Source of the DNA: a virus
Reading direction: 5' to 3' (one strand)
Length of the DNA stretch: 64,000 nt
IMG/VR virus record: IMGVR_UViG_3300031772_000002
Span: 64,001-128,000 of that record
The stretch's first letter is position 1; the number at the start of each line of letters is the position of its first letter. The position numbers and the translations under genes were made by a program. Under the pieces are notes generated by a model. It was not told the origin of the DNA, did not search any database, and saw nothing but the letters and a program-made list of their open reading frames with translations. Positions 1 through 10,455 of this stretch are shown piece after piece.

Positions 1-168
1 TATTACTGCATTATTTTTATTGCCATATTGTTCATTAACTATTGGCATATCATTAAAAATTTTTTCAAATTTGTTTATTTTATCTTTAATTTCTTTTTCT
101 TTTTCTCTTTTTTCTAATTCTTCAATTTGTTGTTTACAAACAAATTGATAAAAAATTTTTGGTATCAT
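1..168 (-). CDS. hypothetical protein (partial, runs off window start)
   Basis: Manual translation MIPKIFYQFVCKQQIEELEKREKEKEIKDK... open to position 1; AAGGA RBS upstream on minus strand. Confidence 0.55.
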   Translation of the reverse strand, partial: MIPKIFYQFVCKQQIEELEKREKEKEIKDKINKFEKIFNDMPIVNEQYGNKNNAVI

Positions 169-460
169 ATAATTTTCCTTATTCTTTTTTATTTTAAGAT
201 GCGCCGGTTCAGTAAGTATATTTTAATATGAATTTTTTGTAAATTATTATTTTTTTTTTACGAGATTTATTTTTTTTTACGATTTTTCTTACTAATTTTA
301 TTTATTTGGTTTATATCAAATGAATTTGAATTTTGATAATAAGAATCATTTCTAAATATTTCTTTCGACATAGATGTCATTGTCATTGTTAATAAAAATG
401 CTAAATTTTTTTTCATTCACTTTGTCCCTATTCTTATTATAACTAAAAATTTGTTAAAAA

Positions 461-613
461 TTATTTTAATTTTTTTGCCAATATAATAAGCAATATTATT
501 ATTATAATAATGCCTATTATTCCAATATAGCATGTTATTTCAACAGTTCCCCAAAGTAAGCGTTCCCAAGATATTATTTTAAATGGACTCCAGTCTAATG
601 TTATTATTATCAT
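461..613 (-). CDS. small predicted membrane peptide (50 aa)
   Basis: Manual translation MIIITLDWSPFKIISWERLLWGTVEITCYIGIIGIIIIIILLIILAKKLK*; AAGGA RBS. Confidence 0.45.
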   Translation of the reverse strand: MIIITLDWSPFKIISWERLLWGTVEITCYIGIIGIIIIIILLIILAKKLK

Positions 614-654
614 AATTTTTGTCCTTAAAAATTTTAATATTAATTAAAAAAAAA

Positions 655-797
655 GAAATTAATAATCCGAATTTGCCCTGTAACAATTGGCCTGTTATTA
701 ATTTCAAAAAAAACTACGCAAGAGTTTTTTTTAATTCAATATTGTAATAACAATATTTATTGTTATTACAATATAAGGAATGGCAAACGCCATTCCT
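655..797. other. cluster of four tandem inverted repeats/hairpins including a 36-bp near-perfect palindrome (739-774)
   Basis: Stems 655-665/695-705, 706-715/723-732, 739-755/758-774, 776-784/789-797. Confidence 0.75.
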
Positions 798-804
798 AAA
801 ATCC

Positions 805-960
805 TTAACATAACTCTTCAACAGAGGCCATTTCTTTGGCCTTAAAAGCCAAATAATTTGAAATCATTAAGGCAAATGAGTTGACAGTTTTCTCAAACTC
901 CTCAACCAGATCTTCCATTTCAGCCACTAACTCTCTTAACAAATCAATTTGATTTTTCAT
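805..960 (-). CDS. small acidic helical protein (51 aa)
   Basis: MKNQIDLLRELVAEMEDLVEEFEKTVNSFALMISNYLAFKAKEMASVEELC*; GGGGGA RBS; promoter motif at 1000-1027 upstream; not in ORF track. Confidence 0.7.
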   Translation of the reverse strand: MKNQIDLLRELVAEMEDLVEEFEKTVNSFALMISNYLAFKAKEMASVEELC

Positions 961-999
961 AAATCCCCCAAGTTTAGAGTTAATTTAGCATACACTGTA

Positions 1000-1027
1000 G
1001 TTATACCATGTTTTTGACAATAATAAC
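1000..1027 (-). promoter_or_regulatory. conserved phage promoter motif copy 1 (GTTATT-N13-TGGTATAAC)
   Basis: Same bipartite motif with 13-nt spacer at five sites upstream of minus-strand genes. Confidence 0.7.
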
Positions 1028-1084
1028 ATACAATGTTAACATTCTTAATATTATGAAAATCAAAATTTTAATTATAGTGATAGC

Positions 1085-1109
1085 AAAAAAAATGGGTATT
1101 AAACCCATT
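1085..1109 (-). terminator. intrinsic terminator after pilin-like operon
   Basis: AATGGGT/ACCCATT stem followed by T-tract on minus strand, just after stop of 1124..2551. Confidence 0.6.
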
Positions 1110-1123
1110 CTAAAACGATGTAC

Positions 1124-2551
1124 TTACATCATTTTATTGCTCCACGAACTCGCTCTGAACGAGTTCATGAATCTATCCGCTCCCGCACGAGCGGACATTT
1201 CCTTGTCCAGAACTCTCGCCACAGGGATTCCAGGGGCCGAGATGGTACCGTTAACCAACCTTGGATCGGCGTTGTATATTGGAATAAGGCCGCCATCTCC
1301 GGTGGCACTTCCATAAGTGCTCGCAGGAGCTCTCATGGAAGTACCACCGTACAAGGAGATGTTCCTTGTATAAGACCCAGAAACATTCCTATAATGACCC
1401 TGAAACATAACCCTGAGAGTGTCCTGTGCAAATAAATAGCCATACACACGATTGTCAGCACTATTATCTTTGAAGTCATAGTTGCTGACAAGAGACGAAT
1501 CGAGAATGGAAATGTCACCCCCTGACACTAATGCTAAGGCATCTCTTGATTTTGTAAGATCTAATTCTTTATATAAGATCTTCCCTATAATGACGATGTC
1601 CTTTCTTGTTGTCACTATAGTGAGTCTCCCCTCAAGAATTCCATACACCAATACTATTTGGTTAGTTTTTACAATGGGATTTTGTAAAATCGAAACATTA
1701 GAGACCCATGTCTGCCATGTTTTCCCAAGAATTGACTTTCTCCTTAGATCGAAAACCTTATTCTTTAATACTATCATGACGGAATCAAATCCGTCAGCGA
1801 TACTATAATTGTAAGTAGTACCGGAAAAAGACGCAGGAGTCACATTTTGTACATCGATTTTATTGACGAATTCATAGTTTGGAAACCTCTCTTCGAACCA
1901 ATTGGCTGGTGGCTTGTCTGAAGCAGACTTATCAAAACGTGTAATTCCGTTTTGATAAATGACAGGGTAATTAACCCTATCAACTTGAGTTAGTGAGGCT
2001 GGAGGTTTTAGGAACCTCCTTGCAGAAGTAAGAAGCCCAGTTACATGGGCGCCACCACCCATAAAACTAGCGACTCTTACATTGCCGTTTGTATGGTAAT
2101 CGCCATTAATTATTTTTGATACCCACAACGACGCTGCGGTTCCAGTATCGTTCTCAAACAAAGTCCAGTACTGCATGCTTTTAAAATTGGTTATAATTTC
2201 AGAAGAATTTATAATAGTAGAATTTGGAAGTAAACAAGTAGACAAAATGCTCTCTGAATAGAGAGGATCAGATATTTCTGTCCCCACTATACTCACAGAC
2301 GGAGTAAGTCCATTAACATCTCCTAAGCTTAGGATTGTACAGTCAATTGATCCACCCGTTTGAACCAATGATAAATAGCGGAATCCAACATTAACACCTG
2401 CTTCATTTGCCCAGAAACTTTTAATGGAATCTGCCGTTCTTTTATTTCTATCGCTATCGATAGAAATAAATTTCACGAACCCTGTGCAAAGTATCAAAAT
2501 CATTGCAGAAAAGACAGTAAAGAAAATTAAAGTACTTCCTTTATTATTCAT
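1124..2551 (-). CDS. PilX/GspK-like minor pilin (class III signal peptide, large C-terminal beta domain)
   Basis: MNNKG|STLIFFTVFSAMILIL: basic leader, G cleavage site, hydrophobic helix without E5, then FWANEAGV motif typical of PilX N-termini. Confidence 0.65.
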   Translation of the reverse strand: MNNKGSTLIFFTVFSAMILILCTGFVKFISIDSDRNKRTADSIKSFWANEAGVNVGFRYLSLVQTGGSIDCTILSLGDVNGLTPSVSIVGTEISDPLYSESILSTCLLPNSTIINSSEIITNFKSMQYWTLFENDTGTAASLWVSKIINGDYHTNGNVRVASFMGGGAHVTGLLTSARRFLKPPASLTQVDRVNYPVIYQNGITRFDKSASDKPPANWFEERFPNYEFVNKIDVQNVTPASFSGTTYNYSIADGFDSVMIVLKNKVFDLRRKSILGKTWQTWVSNVSILQNPIVKTNQIVLVYGILEGRLTIVTTRKDIVIIGKILYKELDLTKSRDALALVSGGDISILDSSLVSNYDFKDNSADNRVYGYLFAQDTLRVMFQGHYRNVSGSYTRNISLYGGTSMRAPASTYGSATGDGGLIPIYNADPRLVNGTISAPGIPVARVLDKEMSARAGADRFMNSFRASSWSNKMM

Positions 2552-2561
2552 AAATACTCCT

Positions 2562-2966
2562 TTAAATTTTGTATGTTATCACAGTTGTCAGATCAATCGA
2601 AGTCAACTGTGGTTGATTGTAGTCAATAGTCACTTTTATTTTCTTGCTAGGAACTATTATAGATCCCTCGACATAATCTATTGAAGTTACCTCTACTCTA
2701 ATAGAAGAACTCTTCAGATTTCTCCATATCTGTTTGTTTGGAATTATAACAACCCCTACGTTCAAATTAAGATATGCCGGTCCCGGAGCATACTTAGGCT
2801 GTTCCAAAATAGACTGGGCAAGTTTGTAGGCTTTCGCCTCAAACATCATCCTCTTGTTTACAAGAGACCCACCACCTACAATTGTAATTATTGCCATGCA
2901 TGTAATCATGGCAATGGTCAGAGAAACCATTAATTCAATTAAAGTAAAACCTTTATTGTTTTTCAT
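2562..2966 (-). CDS. prepilin-type N-terminal cleavage/methylation protein (PilV-like minor pilin)
   Basis: MKNNKG|FTLIELMVSLTI canonical GFTLIE motif; AGGAG RBS. Confidence 0.85.
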   Translation of the reverse strand: MKNNKGFTLIELMVSLTIAMITCMAIITIVGGGSLVNKRMMFEAKAYKLAQSILEQPKYAPGPAYLNLNVGVVIIPNKQIWRNLKSSSIRVEVTSIDYVEGSIIVPSKKIKVTIDYNQPQLTSIDLTTVITYKI

Positions 2967-3023
2967 AAAAACTCCTTAAATCTGTGAGGAAAATATTGAA
3001 CAATCATTCAATTGTTCATTATA

Positions 3024-3051
3024 GTTATACCAGATAATAACGGTTAATAAC
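3024..3051 (-). promoter_or_regulatory. conserved phage promoter motif copy 2
   Basis: GTTATT-AACCGTTATTATC-TGGTATAACTATAAT on minus strand. Confidence 0.7.
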
Positions 3052-3085
3052 TAAAAAAAAGCGTATTTGTTAATACGCTTTTAAA
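3034..3085 (-). repeat. 52-bp terminator+promoter module, copy A (copy B 4879-4930)
   Basis: One mismatch between copies; AAAAGCGTATT/AATACGCTTTT hairpin with T8 tract on minus strand. Confidence 0.85.
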
Positions 3086-3111
3086 CATAATTATTCGTTG
3101 TCAATAAAATT

Positions 3112-3339
3112 TTAATAAATTATAAATTTATACTTCTTTTTTTTCAATATTTTTGCTTTAACAATACATACAGAAAATTTACTAAATTTTTTTTTACTAC
3201 CTGTATATATAGGATCAGAAAAGATGCAATCTTCATAAGTTAAATTTAAAACATTAATACAAAAATATTCTACAACAGATTGTATTTCAGTAGTAAATCT
3301 AAAAATATTTTTATTTTTAGGTATTATTAAATCGATCAT
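3112..3339 (-). CDS. hypothetical protein
   Basis: 75-aa ORF with GGGGA RBS. Confidence 0.6.
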   Translation of the reverse strand: MIDLIIPKNKNIFRFTTEIQSVVEYFCINVLNLTYEDCIFSDPIYTGSKKKFSKFSVCIVKAKILKKKKYKFIIY

Positions 3340-3366
3340 AGCATCCCCTTAATTTAACTATTTTTA

Positions 3367-3582
3367 TTATACAACTTCAAACCAATGATATTTAGTTTTC
3401 ATTGGTATATAATTTTTAGGTGATTTTTTTCCACATGATTTACAAATCTTATTTGGAATAACATTGATATGAAAATTATCATCATCGTATCCATAACTTT
3501 CTTCTTTTTCACCACAATGTTCACATATATAAATTGCATTAAAATCTCTTCTCAGTATATTTATAATTTTTTCTATCTTCAT
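3367..3582 (-). CDS. small zinc-ribbon protein
   Basis: CEHC...CKSC cysteine pairs; AGGA RBS. Confidence 0.7.
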   Translation of the reverse strand: MKIEKIINILRRDFNAIYICEHCGEKEESYGYDDDNFHINVIPNKICKSCGKKSPKNYIPMKTKYHWFEVV

Positions 3583-3623
3583 TTAAAACATATTCCTTTG
3601 TTATAAATTAGTATATTAATAAT

Positions 3624-3899
3624 ATGATAATTATGATACTTGTTGTTATATTTTTATCTATTTTAATAATATTATTATTATTTAGTTATAATAATAGATC
3701 AATTAAAAAGGTAGAGAAATTTCTTATTTTATATAATATAAAATATAAAAAATGGTATGATATGAATAAAAAAGAACTTGTAATCACACCACTTGTAGAT
3801 CATTTTATTTTTGATTATTATGGAGAATTTAAACATGTTGAATTTAATGAAATTGATTTAGATGAAGAGTCTTTTAATAAAATTAAATTGATTAATTAA
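3624..3899 (+). CDS. hypothetical membrane-anchored protein
   Basis: N-terminal hydrophobic helix; fills gap between minus-strand genes. Confidence 0.45.
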   Translation: MIIMILVVIFLSILIILLLFSYNNRSIKKVEKFLILYNIKYKKWYDMNKKELVITPLVDHFIFDYYGEFKHVEFNEIDLDEESFNKIKLIN

Positions 3900-4419
3900 T
3901 ATTTCTAATTATTTCTTCAATTTTATATAATGTATTTTTTTCAATTATCATATTTTTTCTATTTTGATAATACCATGGTTTGATATCAAGTTTACCATTT
4001 ATTGAAAGGCCAGCCCCAATCCAATCTGCAATCATTTCCTTTATATATAATTTAGGAATTGGAATTGAATTTAATCCTCCACTGTCTTTTACTATTACCC
4101 AATAATTCCAATGATGTTTGTTATTTTTTTGATGATGCCACCATGCTTTATCAAACAGTAATATTTGTTTTTCCGAAAGACTTTGTGAATTTTTTCTTTG
4201 TAATCCGTTTGGATAATAAAATCTATTAGCATAAGGAAAAAATTCTGATGGAAGAAATTTACTCCAATCATGAATAATTCCTAGCCATAATGGGCATTTT
4301 GTAATTTTACACGCTTTAAGTACAAATAATTTATGTTTTATTAAATATATAAAATAGTTAATATATTGTTTCATTTTTTTTCCTTTGTTAATAGTTTTTA
4401 ATGTTATATATTGGTACAA
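3892..4419 (-). CDS. DUF5662-like HD-related protein (likely start 4374)
   Basis: HK..V, HDWSKF, WWHHQKNNKHHWNYW, EMIADW motifs. Confidence 0.75.
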   Translation of the reverse strand: MYQYITLKTINKGKKMKQYINYFIYLIKHKLFVLKACKITKCPLWLGIIHDWSKFLPSEFFPYANRFYYPNGLQRKNSQSLSEKQILLFDKAWWHHQKNNKHHWNYWVIVKDSGGLNSIPIPKLYIKEMIADWIGAGLSINGKLDIKPWYYQNRKNMIIEKNTLYKIEEIIRNIN

Positions 4420-4661
4420 TATGGCCCTTTATTGAATGTACTAAAATTAATATTTATAACATTTACATTCTTTATTACTTGTTCTAAACTTCCATTTGCT
4501 TGAAAATACTCTAATTCATTATCAATATAATCTTTAACATTTTTAGGATTAGTTTCAACATCACCATCTAATATCAATAATTCTAATTTAGAATCATTAA
4601 CATTTGAAATTGCACTTTGAATAATTCCATCCTTAATAAATAAAATCAATTTAATTTTCAT
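4404..4661 (-). CDS. hypothetical protein
   Basis: 85-aa ORF, AGGAG RBS. Confidence 0.65.
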   Translation of the reverse strand: MKIKLILFIKDGIIQSAISNVNDSKLELLILDGDVETNPKNVKDYIDNELEYFQANGSLEQVIKNVNVININFSTFNKGPYCTNI

Positions 4662-4689
4662 AAATCTCCTTTTATAAATAAAAAATAGA

Positions 4690-4785
4690 TTAGTGGAAGA
4701 GGTTTAATTTATCTGGCGGTCATTCACCCAGATATGCAATAGTTTAAATAATGACCACTATTGTTTTGCTATATACTTTCACTAA
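4690..4785. ncRNA. candidate structured RNA: three-way junction with 7-bp kissing loops
   Basis: P1 4690-4699/4776-4785, P2 4710-4716/4728-4734, P3 4736-4743/4757-4764; loops GGTCATT (4718-4724) and AATGACC (4750-4756) are complementary. Confidence 0.55.
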
Positions 4786-4867
4786 CCATTGATGGATATT
4801 AAGTAAACTATCCATAATTATTATTTCAGTTATTTATTAATAATAACAAATTAATTTAAAAAATCTT

Positions 4868-4896
4868 TATATAACCAAATAATAACTGTTAATAAC
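4868..4896 (-). promoter_or_regulatory. conserved phage promoter motif copy 3 (variant)
   Basis: GTTATT-N13-TGGTTATATA. Confidence 0.55.
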
Positions 4897-4930
4897 TAAA
4901 AAAAAGCGTATTTGTTAATACGCTTTTAAA
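4879..4930 (-). terminator. 52-bp terminator+promoter module, copy B
   Basis: Near-identical to 3034-3085; follows stop of 4955..5434. Confidence 0.8.
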
Positions 4931-4954
4931 TTTATTATTAATAAATAAACAATT

Positions 4955-5434
4955 TTATTTTATTTTAAATGGCGGTAAAATAAAATCATTCTTATTAAAT
5001 AATATTTTATCTAGTCTACTTTTTAATAATATAGAAGAATGGTCCTTATCATATTTATCTACAATTTTTTTAATTTGATAATTAAATATTAATACTTCTG
5101 TATTAACAGAACATATATAAGTAACTGGTTTTTTAATTTTAGGATTCCAAAATGAACTATAATTATCATATATTCCACCACCATCTTGATAATGCTGATA
5201 ACTCATTTTATTTTTTATACAAAATAAGCATAAATTATCACACATTGCATAGTTACTAACTCCACACCAATTTATTGGTTTATTATTTTTAATTAAATCA
5301 TAAAGTTCTTTTGAATTAACAGGTCCTGATTCAATATTTATAATATCAGATTTTAATGTATTAAGAAAATCATTAACTTTTATAGCTGATAATATTCCAC
5401 CAATTTTAATCGATAAATTTAAATGTTCACTCAT
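4955..5434 (-). CDS. hypothetical protein
   Basis: 159-aa ORF translationally coupled (ATGA overlap) to upstream gene. Confidence 0.7.
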   Translation of the reverse strand: MSEHLNLSIKIGGILSAIKVNDFLNTLKSDIINIESGPVNSKELYDLIKNNKPINWCGVSNYAMCDNLCLFCIKNKMSYQHYQDGGGIYDNYSSFWNPKIKKPVTYICSVNTEVLIFNYQIKKIVDKYDKDHSSILLKSRLDKILFNKNDFILPPFKIK

Positions 5435-5847
5435 ATAACTATGCCATCATTTTGATTTTCTTCTTCGCATTCTTTTTTTTCTTCTATTTCTTTTGGTAAG
5501 CCCAATTTATCCCATACCTCATCTTCAACAAAAGCTGCTCTTTTATCTTTAATAGAATCACCAAATATTTTTTCTGCAGCATCGACCTTTATAACTACTA
5601 TTTTTCCTGTTCTATATGGATTTTCTTGATCTGTTTTATTTTCTACTGAAATAAGCATAACGCCCATATTCATATATTCTTTACATTTATCACATGGCTC
5701 TTTATTCCAAACAGCTTTACGTGGAGCTTCAATATCTCCTTTTAACATTCCAGGAATAATGATTTCATTTTTATCACCCCCACATAGGAAACACACTGAC
5801 ATTGAAGGATTCAATCCATATTTTTTACTTATTCTAATTTTTTTCAT
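5431..5847 (-). CDS. phage protein with CxxC pairs
   Basis: GLNPSMSVCFLCG and EPCDKC; GGAGG RBS. Confidence 0.75.
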   Translation of the reverse strand: MKKIRISKKYGLNPSMSVCFLCGGDKNEIIIPGMLKGDIEAPRKAVWNKEPCDKCKEYMNMGVMLISVENKTDQENPYRTGKIVVIKVDAAEKIFGDSIKDKRAAFVEDEVWDKLGLPKEIEEKKECEEENQNDGIVI

Positions 5848-5883
5848 TAAACCTCCGTTTAAATTAAAAAAAACTAATGATTT

Positions 5884-6132
5884 TTATTTTTGATTTGAAA
5901 TTATTAAGTCTAACTTTTTGTTTATTACTTGTAATAATTCAAGATTTAGTTTTGAAATTTCAATAACAATTTCATTTTGTTTACCAATAAGTTTATTTTG
6001 TTTACTAAGCATTTCTATTATAAAATTTAAGTTTTTATTAATAAGATTTTCTATTTCTATCGACATAATTGTTTTATTATCCTTGGTTAAATTTTTAATT
6101 AAATTCCTGTACCTTGGCATGAAGGACAGCAT
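5884..6132 (-). CDS. hypothetical coiled-coil protein (likely start near 6066)
   Basis: ORF in minus-strand gene string. Confidence 0.45.
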   Translation of the reverse strand: MLSFMPRYRNLIKNLTKDNKTIMSIEIENLINKNLNFIIEMLSKQNKLIGKQNEIVIEISKLNLELLQVINKKLDLIISNQK

Positions 6133-6404
6133 ACATCCGCTCCTTGATTTGATAATATCCCAGATCCTTTACATCTAGGGCATACACTGTTAGGAAGTGG
6201 GCACTCTTTAGGTATTGATTTTGAAATTTTTAATTCTTTATTTTCTTTAAATAGTTTTCTCATTTTAACATGTCTACATAATTTTTGATCATTTGAAACA
6301 TGTCCACAATCAAAACAACTAGTAATTTTTTTTCCTTCATAAATTTTTACCATATTATTAAAATCCTTTCTTAAAAAAAATAAATTTAAATAGGAAGGCG
6401 CCAT
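6099..6404 (-). CDS. small Cys-rich zinc-binding protein (likely start 6353)
   Basis: CFDC, CPL, CPRCKGSG, CPSCQGTG (DnaJ-type CxxCxGxG). Confidence 0.65.
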   Translation of the reverse strand: MAPSYLNLFFLRKDFNNMVKIYEGKKITSCFDCGHVSNDQKLCRHVKMRKLFKENKELKISKSIPKECPLPNSVCPRCKGSGILSNQGADVCCPSCQGTGI

Positions 6405-6613
6405 TTAATATCATGAAAAACTATTTTTAAATAATTTTTTTTAGATAAAAATGGAATTTTGTATATATAACCTATTTCAATATCCCACCAATAATGCCAA
6501 GCTAATAGTTCTCCGCAATCGGAGCATTTTAACCATTTGCGTTGATTAAATAACAATTTTTTTATTTTTTGTTTAAATTGTACATATTTTATCATTCTTG
6601 CTACACCTTCCAT
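6386..6613 (-). CDS. hypothetical protein
   Basis: ORF with CSDCG in overlapping gene string. Confidence 0.5.
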   Translation of the reverse strand: MEGVARMIKYVQFKQKIKKLLFNQRKWLKCSDCGELLAWHYWWDIEIGYIYKIPFLSKKNYLKIVFHDIKWRLPI

Positions 6614-6767
6614 TTATCGTTTTTGATAAACAATCTTTTTGTTTATCACATGTAGGCATATTAATAGTTTCATTAATTAAAGAACAGTATTCGGCAGTGT
6701 CTTTATGGCGACATTTGTTGTATTGAATACATTTAACGTCAGTGCATTTCATAAAAACCTCCAACAT
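6573..6767 (-). CDS. small Cys-rich protein (likely start 6752)
   Basis: 8 Cys; GGAGG RBS before MKCTD. Confidence 0.55.
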   Translation of the reverse strand: MLEVFMKCTDVKCIQYNKCRHKDTAEYCSLINETINMPTCDKQKDCLSKTINGRCSKNDKICTI

Positions 6768-6776
6768 TAATTTTAT

Positions 6777-7112
6777 TTAAAAAGAATAATCATAATATTC
6801 ATTTCTATATCCTATTGAAAGATAGGAGCCACCTTTTGATTTCCAACCATTTTTAGTTAGTCTAAATATTTTTTTTTCATTATTTGTATTTACAAAATAT
6901 TTATATTCTTGAACTTCAGATATTCCGTTATTATCGGTACGAACAGAGTCATCGTATTGAAAAACAATTTTATTTTTTAAAACTTCAACTATAGTTCCGG
7001 CTCTTCTGTCCGTATAAAGACATTCGGTTGCCCCTGTATTGATTTCAATTTTTTTAGGAAATTTTTCAGTTAATATAACATTAACTAAAGATCCGGCATT
7101 TTTTAAATTCAT
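6777..7112 (-). CDS. phage hypothetical protein
   Basis: GATECLYTDRRAGTIVEV...IGYRNEYYDYSF; AGGAG RBS. Confidence 0.75.
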   Translation of the reverse strand: MNLKNAGSLVNVILTEKFPKKIEINTGATECLYTDRRAGTIVEVLKNKIVFQYDDSVRTDNNGISEVQEYKYFVNTNNEKKIFRLTKNGWKSKGGSYLSIGYRNEYYDYSF

Positions 7113-7148
7113 TACATCTCCTTTAAAAAGTAAATAATGTATATATTA

Positions 7149-7176
7149 ATTATGTCATATTTTTTAAAAGAATAAC
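7149..7176 (-). promoter_or_regulatory. conserved phage promoter motif copy 4 (variant)
   Basis: GTTATT-N13-TGACATAAT. Confidence 0.55.
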
Positions 7177-7192
7177 ATTATTATTAATATAA

Positions 7193-7221
7193 TTGCATTT
7201 TTAATAGAAATCAATTATATT
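7193..7221 (+). promoter_or_regulatory. sigma70-like promoter
   Basis: TTGCAT-17nt-TATATT upstream of 7251. Confidence 0.45.
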
Positions 7222-7250
7222 TCTATATAAAATCTATAAAAGGAGGAAGT

Positions 7251-8042
7251 GTGATTGAACAAAAACCAAAACCATCAGGTGTATTTTCAAAACCAAATAT
7301 TCAATTATCTAATTCTGAACAACCAAGTAATTTAAAATCAGAATCAGAAATAAAAAAAGTTGATTTTAAAGAACCGTCACTTAATAACGAAACAAGTAAA
7401 TCAATAATTAATAAAACCGATACGACATCTGAAGATAATAAAACTTATGACGATATCGAAAAAATAAATAAAAATTTCGATAAAGGTTTGGATGATTCGT
7501 TGTATGATGATATTGATGTTAATTCCGATGATCTTAAAATAGCGGAAAAAATTTTATTTGATGGATATGCCGAAACTGATGTTTCTATTGCTAATTTTCC
7601 TGATAATAAATTTACAATATGTTCTACAAGTGCAGAAGAGATAGATTTGATACAAGAAATAATATTTGATATTTGTAAAGAACATGAAACTAATGATGAT
7701 AGGATAGACATGCCTCAAACAAATATACGAGCTATGAATAATGCTTTATTTATAGCGATATCATATAGAGGAATGAATAAAAAAGAGTTATGTGAAAATC
7801 CTATAGAACATTTAAATACTATTAAAAAAGCTATTATTAAAGTTGATTCATTTATTAATGATGGCAATATAAAAGCTGCCAAAGAATTAAAAGATAGTTT
7901 AAAAAAATCATTACGAAATAGAGTTTCTAAAGTAAGAAGACTTTCTACCCCTGTCATTGATTTTATTTCTAATGAAAAAAATAAATTTGATAAAAAAATA
8001 TCTAAAATATTTTCAATGAAGAATATTATCCCAAAATCATAG
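7251..8042 (+). CDS. putative tail assembly chaperone (gpG-like short form)
   Basis: AGGAGG RBS; ends at slippery C CCA AAA just before TAG; upstream of tape-measure-like gene. Confidence 0.6.
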   Translation: MIEQKPKPSGVFSKPNIQLSNSEQPSNLKSESEIKKVDFKEPSLNNETSKSIINKTDTTSEDNKTYDDIEKINKNFDKGLDDSLYDDIDVNSDDLKIAEKILFDGYAETDVSIANFPDNKFTICSTSAEEIDLIQEIIFDICKEHETNDDRIDMPQTNIRAMNNALFIAISYRGMNKKELCENPIEHLNTIKKAIIKVDSFINDGNIKAAKELKDSLKKSLRNRVSKVRRLSTPVIDFISNEKNKFDKKISKIFSMKNIIPKS

Positions 8043-8332
8043 GGACCGGAACAGGCGCAGCTCGTGCATATTTTTTATTTAAAGGTTTAAAATTTGAATA
8101 TGATTCGATATTAGAAAGTATAGCTATATCAGTTTACTCAAGAGAAAAACAAATTCAATATATGGCTCCTTTATTTTCTATAGCCGGTCCAGATGATAAA
8201 ATGCGCCTAATGAATTCATATCATAGTTGTGTATTTCCTGAAGATAAATTTAACGATGAGTTGTATTTAAAGAAAGTCAAAAGCACAATGGAAAGATTGC
8301 GCAATATAGAATTTGTAGTTAAACCAATTTAA
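8030..8332 (+). CDS. -1 frameshift extension of 7251 gene (gpGT-like)
   Basis: 100-codon open frame without own start/RBS: PKIIGTGTGAARAYFLFKGLKFEYDS...EFVVKPI*, entered at XXXYYYZ heptamer 8030-8036. Confidence 0.7.
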   Translation, partial: PKIIGTGTGAARAYFLFKGLKFEYDSILESIAISVYSREKQIQYMAPLFSIAGPDDKMRLMNSYHSCVFPEDKFNDELYLKKVKSTMERLRNIEFVVKPI

Positions 8333-8341
8333 AGGAGGCAT

Positions 8342-8971
8342 ATGAAAGAAAAAATAGCGGCTTTTATGCATTACTTATGGATTGCACGGATGGAATATTT
8401 ATTATCAATGATTGAAGAAATTGATAAAATTTCAATACTTGATGAAAATGAAACTTCTTATACAATTATTAAACAAAATATAATTAATAATTGGAAAAAA
8501 TTAATGGAGACCGATTATAACGACCTTGATGAAGAACAAAAAGAATATAATCGTAATCAAGCCGATACATTATTTAAATATATTATTGAAATAGAAAAAG
8601 ATAGAGAAAATTCTGATGATAATATTGAAAGTGAAAATGGTAATCAAGAAAAAAACCAACTTCTTGAAAAAATTACATTTGGAGAAAAAATTAAAAGTTT
8701 AAGAATTAAAAATAATATAGACCAATCATCACTTGCTGAAATTATTGGCGTTACTCAAAGCGCCATATCACAATTTGAAAATAATATAAGAATACCATCA
8801 GAAGAAAATATTATGAAGTTATCTGAAATATTTAATAATGAATTAGAACTTGATGATATTCCTGAATCAAATTTTATTAAATGTATGAGATTTTTTAAAA
8901 CATTAAATCAAAAACAAATTTCATTATTATATGATGTTGCATGTCAATTTAAAATTTCTAATGGAAATTAG
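8342..8971 (+). CDS. XRE-family HTH regulator with N-terminal RyR-like domain
   Basis: FGEKIKSLRIKNNIDQSSLAEIIGVTQSAISQFENNIRIPS HTH; N-terminal H..W...YNDLDEEQKEYNR. Confidence 0.8.
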   Translation: MKEKIAAFMHYLWIARMEYLLSMIEEIDKISILDENETSYTIIKQNIINNWKKLMETDYNDLDEEQKEYNRNQADTLFKYIIEIEKDRENSDDNIESENGNQEKNQLLEKITFGEKIKSLRIKNNIDQSSLAEIIGVTQSAISQFENNIRIPSEENIMKLSEIFNNELELDDIPESNFIKCMRFFKTLNQKQISLLYDVACQFKISNGN

Positions 8972-10021: not shown

Positions 10022-10351
10022 TTACGCAGCCTTTTCCTTCTTTTCCCTCAGCAAAGGAGCCACATGTTTCGCCAGTTCAGCGTACTGATCATTTAGCAGC
10101 TTATGCGAGTCGTCTACTGCTTTTTTTTCCAAATTTCTTTCTGCAATGTCCTCTTTTTCTACTGCGATTTTAAACTTCGCGATGGCTTTTGGGACATCGC
10201 TTCCTGCCTTATCAACAATATCTTTCAAGAATTTTTGTAAATTCTCTTCGTCAATAAGTGGTTTTGCAAAATTTTTACCAACTGCAACCCCTGCCATAAA
10301 TCCAACCGTTCCTGCTCCGACACCAACTGCAACATGCGTTAAGATACTCAT
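10022..10351 (-). CDS. small membrane-anchored protein
   Basis: Gly-rich N-terminal TM helix, charged helical body; AGGAG RBS; promoter motif upstream. Confidence 0.75.
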   Translation of the reverse strand: MSILTHVAVGVGAGTVGFMAGVAVGKNFAKPLIDEENLQKFLKDIVDKAGSDVPKAIAKFKIAVEKEDIAERNLEKKAVDDSHKLLNDQYAELAKHVAPLLREKKEKAA

Positions 10352-10427
10352 AACTACTCCTTTTAAAAAAAATTAAATAACTATCCTCCATTTAGAGGTT
10401 GGTTAACATTTTAAACTGTACATTATA

Positions 10428-10455
10428 GTTATACCAGTTTTTTTTCAAAAATAAC
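10428..10455 (-). promoter_or_regulatory. conserved phage promoter motif copy 5
   Basis: GTTATT-TTTGAAAAAAAAC-TGGTATAACTATAAT. Confidence 0.7.

Follow-up and report, generated by a model that had tools for sequence, protein, structure and literature searches.

A gap of 293 nt between two small minus-strand genes of a large phage genome contains a set of inverted repeats that a preliminary description had put forward as a candidate structured RNA, and it raises the question of whether these repeats act as an RNA, on which strand, and on which genes. The source is a 164,446-bp IMG/VR virus record with direct terminal repeats, of which bases 64,001–128,000 (hereafter the window, 64,000 nt) were analyzed; the G+C content of the window is ~28%. 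Small minus-strand ORFs fill its first 7 kb, and from ~10.5 kb on the plus strand encodes a baseplate-J-like protein (Baseplate_J) and very large structural proteins. The gap separates ORFs 4955–5434 (159 aa) and 4404–4661 (85 aa). On the sequence evidence set out below, and with confidence that is about evenly balanced, we read the junction element housed there as a structured part of the 85-aa/DUF5662 transcript leader, specific to one lineage and acting in cis, carried on the minus strand and belonging to no known family. Read 5′ to 3′ on that strand, the order is terminator, cassette box, second promoter-like site, hairpin H0, junction, U-rich tract, AAGGAG and ATG, and the individual features are as follows.

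4902..4927, minus strand: 11-bp hairpin with a T8 tail, the intrinsic terminator belonging to the 159-aa gene upstream; makes up the first half of the terminator–promoter cassette that recurs in the genome
4869..4896, minus strand: putative promoter-like box of the cassette, GTTATT (4896–4891), N13, TGG, TTATAT (4874–4869)
4816..4849, minus strand: second promoter-like site, TTGTTA (4849–4844), 18 nt, TG-extended AATAAT (4825–4820), from a motif scan and conservation
4792..4815, minus strand: hairpin H0, ATGGATA-N10-TATCCAT; stem kept in all lineages, loop variable
4688..4787, minus strand: three-way-junction element (P1, P2 and P3), defined by folds, pair counts, permutation and a covariance model
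4776–4787 with 4688–4699, minus strand: P1, the closing stem, 11–12 bp
4757–4763 with 4737–4743, minus strand: P2, 7 bp, with loop L2 at 4744–4756
4728–4734 with 4710–4716, minus strand: P3, 7 bp, with loop L3 at 4717–4727
4750–4756 and 4718–4724: complementary heptamers, in L2 and L3
4672..4687, minus strand: U-rich tract UAUUUUUUAUUUAUAA, which adjoins P1 on its 3′ side and shortly precedes the Shine–Dalgarno sequence
4672..4780, no strand assigned: 109-nt segment, present in the window and in the related contigs L012, L014, L021 and L023, absent from the related contigs L013 and L022
4404..4671, minus strand: Shine–Dalgarno sequence AAGGAG (4671–4666) and 85-aa ORF (4404–4661, ATG at 4661), first gene of the presumed regulated unit
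3892..4374, minus strand: DUF5662 gene, second and final gene of the presumed unit

The pairing described earlier for the junction itself is present in full. Written on the plus strand, the closing stem TTAGTGGAAG (4690–4699) pairs with CTTTCACTAA (4776–4785) through nine Watson–Crick pairs and one G·T. It encloses a first inner hairpin, TATCTGG/CCAGATA (4710–4716/4728–4734), with an 11-nt loop and a second, CAATAGT/ACTATTG (4737–4743/4757–4763), with a 13-nt loop, and the loop heptamers GGTCATT (4718–4724) and AATGACC (4750–4756) are exact complements. Two flanking hairpins had also been proposed. The one at 4792–4815 is real and kept in every relative, whereas the “hairpin” at 4818–4846 consists of A/T only, overlaps a promoter-like box, and has a 5′ arm that is not conserved in L013 and L022. 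The G+C content of the element is 34%, compared with 24% in its surroundings. P1 encloses a 76-nt branched interior and abuts UAUUUUUUAUUU, and a T6 run is found before just 11% of the Shine–Dalgarno-led genes in the genome. The U-rich tract at 4672–4687 is itself part of the 109-nt segment that is missing in L013 and L022. A small-protein gene was considered for this region and rejected. The sole ORF, of 23 aa (4815–4744), has no Shine–Dalgarno sequence or ribosome-binding site, its three substitutions each alter the amino acid (K to E, I to T and H to Y), and a frameshift in L013 and L022 shortens it to 10 aa.

In agreement with the preliminary description, which could not match it by sequence to purine riboswitches, the SRP Alu domain or phi29 pRNA, the element has no match among known RNA families. 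A scan with Rfam 15, whose families include the purine, lysine and guanidine-II riboswitches, pRNA, SRP and ribozymes, gave 0 matches at gathering thresholds in the 64-kb window, and a permissive search (E ≤ 10) of positions 4600–4960 returned only chance-level matches with E ≥ 0.98, none of them structured over the junction core. ARAGORN found 0 tRNA or tmRNA genes in the window. An attC-like site, a hammerhead or other ribozyme, a tRNA-like element and a mimic of a CRISPR repeat were likewise considered and rejected. When the genome was searched with a covariance model of the element, a single copy emerged. BLAST of positions 4400–5100 against GenBank phages gave no match, and IMG/VR, from which near relatives may have been withheld, gave 0 hits to exact and gapped patterns for hairpin 1, for the conserved promoter/hairpin block and for both loops. 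The metagenome scan for the H0 block recovered L014 only, a contig identical to the window over the element. A 19-mer scan of 185,579 prokaryote genomes produced six hits in GC-rich, unrelated contexts, a number in line with the chance expectation.

Two promoter-like boxes precede the junction, and a strong Shine–Dalgarno sequence follows it at a distance of 17 nt, all on the same strand as the gene. The leader here is ~200 nt long, as compared with ~40–80 nt for the other four cassette promoters in the window. The promoter-like box of the cassette was defined by aligning five copies (leftward units); it is absent from L013 and L022 and incomplete in L021 and L023. The second site contains a block, 4816–4831, that is unchanged across all five lineages examined, and transcription from it would start at H0. 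Promoter-like matches in such A/T-rich DNA occur at chance level, with 14 found in our scan vs 10.5 expected.

Several further features of these leaders and cassettes were observed. The block at 4792–4831, which comprises the TG-extended −10-like AATAAT and H0, occurs once in the genome and is nearly invariant in lineages that are ~80% identical elsewhere, with the loop alone varying; it is probably the true promoter with a 5′-terminal stabilizing hairpin, or else an operator. Hairpins soon after the predicted start are also found in other cassette-promoter leaders, at 2966–3024 (GAACAAT-TGAATG-ATTGTTC, before a pilin gene) and at 10351–10428 (CCTC-TAAAT-GGAGG, before the gene at 10351). The terminator and promoter-like cassette itself (window 4869–4939) is repeated at window 3029–3095 and at genome positions 134938–135440 and 163133–163858, and it coincides with indel and gene-swap boundaries among the relatives. 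L013 and L022 have no cassette here, and at this site L021 carries three additional genes and L023 a single one. In Logan contigs that carry the 85-aa gene, independent short-read assemblies from several runs end at one point, 256 nt upstream of the gene; this break point falls within the repeated terminator–promoter cassette and fits a repeat-induced assembly break. Samples that contain this phage include JGI 3300031707, 3300032053, 3300037137 and 3300032931, ENA ERZ27247880/916/989, and SRR9617925, SRR9651337 and SRR11714508.

Five informative contigs were reached via neighboring proteins. L012 and L014 are 96–99% identical to the window overall and identical to it over 4464–6250. They are uninformative on the element because mosaic divergence leaves this stretch unchanged, and we rejected a conservation argument drawn from these near-identical relatives, in which 4464–6250 is wholly identical. 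When window positions 1–8233 are compared with L014, there are zero differences over 4464–6250 and 14–72 per 250 nt over 750–2500 and 3500–4460, a mosaic that points to recent recombination among the near relatives.

L013 and L022 stand at ~81% nucleotide identity and encode an 85-aa protein that is 71% identical. Both keep the block 4781–4831 with hardly a change (none in the TG-extended −10 or the H0 stems, some in the H0 loop), and it runs straight into AAGGAG-ATG, without the 109 nt of 4672–4780 and without the terminator–promoter cassette. As these lineages have the gene without the element, the element is dispensable for expression of the gene and lineage-specific. L021 and L023, reached through a 91%-identical homologue of the 159-aa protein and a cluster-mate 85-aa protein, have this leader too, before the same gene and with diverged copies of the element in the same position; their upstream genes differ. 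Distinct copies thus number just three (the window, L021 and L023), which are closely related to one another; they differ at 12–13 positions over ~100 nt, and the flanking leader is identical.

More distant relatives contribute no further copies. A search seeded with DUF5662 returned only relatives at 33–40%, none with the element. In L026, from a lineage whose DUF5662 protein is 58% identical, the operon is compact and has neither leader nor element. Locus searches seeded with the 85-aa, 159-aa and 442-aa proteins yielded nothing, and an exhaustive HMMER search with the 85-aa protein found no true distant homologues. Pfam, PHROGs, PADLOC, PDB and the ESM Atlas gave no function for the downstream proteins. 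In L026 (1128–2676), an AcrVA2-like gene (PF26125) directly follows the DUF5662 gene, which hints that the DUF5662 neighborhood may be an early anti-defense region.

The diverged copies allow the stems to be compared position by position, here on the mRNA-sense strand. P2 has one fully compensatory change, from U–A to C–G (window 4760/4740). In P3, C–G becomes U·G at 4731 in L021, and in H0, G–C becomes G·U at 4794 in L023 through a single C-to-T change that pairs as G·U on the minus strand only. Within P1, A·C becomes A–U (4696) and G·U becomes G–C (4689), and the innermost pair (4699) is lost. Over the three sequences, this comes to a single compensatory pair plus three or four single changes that are compatible with pairing. 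The loops are unchanged except for one base beside P3, with both heptamers invariant in all copies, and the junction strand J3/1 is changed at 6 of its 10 positions. Paired cells amount to 97.5%, vs 30–44% with slid partners, and RNAalifold returns the same three-way junction. When the same substitutions were re-placed at random, at least 25 of the 26 pairs were kept in 1.7–4.2% of trials (p = 0.017–0.042; n = 3 sequences). A shuffle control is uninformative at n = 3, with 160 of 500 shuffles reaching the observed value. The substitutions are clustered, 8 of them within 12 nt, and may stand for few events. Templated (quasi-palindrome) mutation at the DNA level can also yield perfecting or compensatory changes in inverted repeats without selection on an RNA. 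The retention of the stems in three sequences is suggestive, not conclusive.

The strand was also reconsidered. The preliminary description had favored the plus strand on account of two G–U pairs, an argument that falls away once P1 is extended to 12 pairs, as each strand then has one wobble and one mismatch. In the window, the folding energies of the element are −24.8 kcal/mol on the plus strand vs −22.9 kcal/mol on the minus strand, and the z-scores of the 106-nt core are −3.1 and −2.1, respectively. On the plus strand, the second hairpin (4737–4763) has a probability of only 0.32, and the minimum-energy fold puts a competing G·U-containing hairpin in its place; on the minus strand, each of the three helices has a predicted probability of ~0.8–0.95. 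The sense-strand folds of the two variants have z-scores of −3.5 and −4.1, and variant z-scores reach −3.5 to −5.1. Three states pair on the minus strand only, namely the wobble-type changes at 4731 and 4794 and the G·U at 4689, and one state, that of the window at 4696, pairs on the plus strand only. Predicted energies are alike on both strands, and L023 folds better on the antisense strand. Assignment to the minus strand comes mainly from context, that is, from the promoter-like boxes, the terminator, the ribosome-binding site and the movement of the element with the leader of the gene, which together weakly suggest this orientation.

The complementarity of the two loops is central to the original finding. 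In the 164-kb genome, it is the single adjacent hairpin pair with loop complementarity of at least 7 nt. Composition-matched simulated genomes contain 0.37 such pairs each, so the kiss alone is not beyond chance. For the loop complement together with the enclosing 10-bp stem, a rough estimate of the expectation is ~0.01 per genome; the full arrangement is improbable per genome, yet a large scan would still meet such cases. Because both heptamers are invariant in all copies, covariation neither supports nor refutes the kiss. The 7-nt heptamer duplex is predicted at about −7.4 kcal/mol. One heptamer follows the 5′ strand of P2 with 0 nt between them, the other precedes the 3′ strand of P3 by 1 nt, and the joint between P2 and P3 is 2 nt long. 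With linkers and a joint this short, a full 7-bp kiss in the presence of both complete 7-bp stems looks strained, and by established pseudoknot stereochemistry such an intramolecular interaction appears sterically doubtful. More plausible would be loops that touch only in part, a kiss between two molecules, or folds that exclude each other. As regards the last of these, nested pairing of the heptamers extends to a ~14-bp helix, a rod that in the window lies within ~2.6 kcal/mol of the junction fold, and in L021, with its weakened P3, the rod is predicted to dominate (helix probability of 0.58 vs 0.11–0.31 for the hairpins). In the most far-reaching reading, the two long and exactly complementary loops would be the working part of a new class of phage leader RNA and might switch it between junction and rod as a two-state sensor, or pair between molecules into dimers or multimers, and so control the early genes. 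We regard this more specific version as unlikely.

The preliminary description had offered three possibilities for the function of the element: a riboswitch-like leader, an antisense RNA or an oligomerizing RNA. The leader part of this proposal fits best, since the element travels with the leader of the gene where the upstream genes differ, and since three stems survive 12–13 substitutions that include one compensatory pair. A riboswitch in the strict sense is not supported, as no Rfam family matches, one strand of the junction is hypervariable (6 of 10 nt) and J2/3 is only 2 nt long. The antisense and phi29-pRNA-like readings are taken up below. As a leader, the RNA would start at one of the two promoter-like boxes, most likely at the conserved TG-extended −10 at 4820–4828, which would place H0 at its 5′ end. 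The RNA would then fold into the three-way junction, with a P1 of 11–12 bp and a P2 and P3 of 7 bp each, followed directly by the U-rich tract and then by the Shine–Dalgarno sequence, and the element would act in cis on the 85-aa/DUF5662 operon. How it might do so can be only proposed. One option is an attenuator in which P1 and the U-rich tract bring about premature termination and release an RNA of ~140 nt; a consensus terminator scan did not call this combination, and a closing stem that is branched is atypical for an intrinsic terminator. Another option is control of mRNA stability or translation. The conserved loops could serve as a recognition surface, possibly with partial loop–loop contact. 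Alternatively, the RNA might toggle between the junction and the nearly isoenergetic rod, with the heptamers as the core of the ~14-bp helix.

The repeats might also have no function. They could be interleaved inverted repeats left over from insertion or recombination in a hyperplastic early region, in copies that are young, with quasi-palindromes homogenized by templated mutation and loop complementarity that arose by chance. This explanation, which we consider possible though doubtful, is in keeping with the 0.37 hairpin pairs with a loop complement of at least 7 nt per simulated genome, with a locus where indels and gene swaps are concentrated between repeated terminator–promoter cassettes, with the retention of the gene in L013 and L022 where the element is absent, with the three variants and their clustered substitutions being all there are, and with the failure to find a relative anywhere else. 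It is harder to reconcile with a permutation p of ~0.02–0.04 for stem retention, with the clean compensatory pair in P2 and the wobble-type changes in two helices of two genomes, with loops that are invariant next to a J3/1 strand changed at 6 of 10 positions, and with variant fold z-scores of −3.5 to −5.1. A protein-binding or structure-forming site that acts at the level of DNA, for recombination, replication, packaging or operators, would be recognized either in double-stranded form, as inverted repeats, or as single-stranded DNA that has folded. Genes for a recombinase, a replication initiator or a terminase are lacking next to the element, the repeat half-sites lie 11–25 bp or more apart, unlike those of simple dimer operators, and the sister lineage without the element keeps the neighboring genes, all of which makes such a site decidedly unlikely, even though the helices are inverted repeats equally present in DNA, folded single-stranded DNA also tolerates G·T wobbles, the element has a G+C content of 34% vs 24% around it, and a gene for an HTH regulator lies nearby (8342–8971).

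An antisense RNA had been among the original suggestions; it would be a small RNA from the plus strand, directed against the leader of the 85-aa gene and its ribosome-binding site. The slightly better plus-strand fold in the window (−24.8 vs −22.9 kcal/mol; z of −3.1 vs −2.1), the G·U of P1 on the plus strand where the minus strand has A·C, and a sigma-70-like match at 4617–4646 on the plus strand all speak for it. Set against these are the probability of just 0.32 for hairpin 2 on that strand, the absence of a convincing plus-strand terminator after the element, and the chance-level frequency of promoter-like matches (14 found vs 10.5 expected). The two wobble-type changes, in P3 of L021 and in H0 of L023, break the pairing on the plus strand, where they become C·A mismatches. 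With the plus strand lacking specific support, we judge an antisense RNA to be very unlikely. An insertion of a MITE-like miniature inverted-repeat transposable element into the leader would account for terminal inverted repeats of 10–12 bp, a size of ~100 nt and presence/absence polymorphism between lineages. However, the borders show no target-site duplication and no direct repeat, and 7 nt at the start of the “terminal repeat” (GGTTAGT) survive in L013 and L022, as would be expected of a deletion more than of an empty site. Both BLAST and the covariance model find a single copy in the genome, phage, viral-contig and prokaryote collections hold no others, and the six bacterial 19-mer hits have unrelated flanks, so that a mobile element of this kind is highly improbable.

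The reading as a structured leader also bears comparison with well-characterized RNAs. Like the purine riboswitch aptamer (RF00167), the element is a predicted three-way junction in a putative 5′ leader, with a P2 and P3 of 7 bp and terminal loops proposed to contact one another. It differs from the riboswitch in that the riboswitch model does not match it even at E ≤ 10, in that J2/3 is 2 nt long instead of ~8, and in that its loops of 13 and 11 nt contain a 7-nt Watson–Crick complement, whereas the 7-nt loops of the riboswitch share two G–C pairs. Moreover, J3/1 is hypervariable here (6 of 10), in contrast to the conserved ligand pocket of the riboswitch. In the lysine riboswitch, L2 and L3 form an intramolecular loop–loop helix of ~6 bp between two hairpins of one junction, and a helix between two hairpins of one junction is what the present element may form as well. 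The lysine riboswitch, however, is a five-way junction in which long helices and a bend let the loops meet, whereas here the stems are 7 bp long, the joint is 2 nt and the linkers are 0 and 1 nt; nor does the element match any Rfam family.

The oligomerizing pRNA of phi29 (RF00044) resembles the element as a phage-encoded RNA with two complementary loops, which in the present case could conceivably pair between molecules hand in hand. The comparison does not extend further: there is no model match, the complement is 7 nt long vs 4 in pRNA, the phage has a 164-kb genome with baseplate genes and is not a phi29-like podovirus, and the element would lie in the mRNA leader of an early region and not beside the packaging motor at the genome end. 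With both phage type and genomic position wrong, the pRNA-like reading was set aside. With attenuators and 5′-UTR-derived small RNAs, the locus shares the proposed order of promoter, structured leader, stem abutting a U-tract and ribosome-binding site, as well as a 5′-terminal hairpin, but in place of a simple hairpin rich in G+C, the stem at the U-tract here closes a branched junction. An alternative antiterminator structure was not identified. PeSL are modular-shuffling promoter/terminator cassettes of T4-type phages (PMC2839356, PMC4122927). The flanking cassette at 4869–4939 is similar to these in being repeated and in lying at indel and gene-swap boundaries. The likeness covers the flank only, as the junction element is single-copy and lies outside the repeated cassette, and the phage is not shown to be T4-like.

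The practical value of the element is limited for now, as it is found in one narrow phage lineage, is dispensable in the sister lineage and has no cultured host. Its possible target is of some interest in that a DUF5662 homologue in a distant relative adjoins an AcrVA2-like (anti-CRISPR-like) gene. Beyond model phages, regulatory leaders are known for few phage early genes. If real, the element would be an unclassified cis-acting RNA fold of an uncultured large phage that controls two early genes, and a design that combines a junction carrying a 7-nt loop–loop complement with a rod fold competing at nearly equal energy would be unusual.
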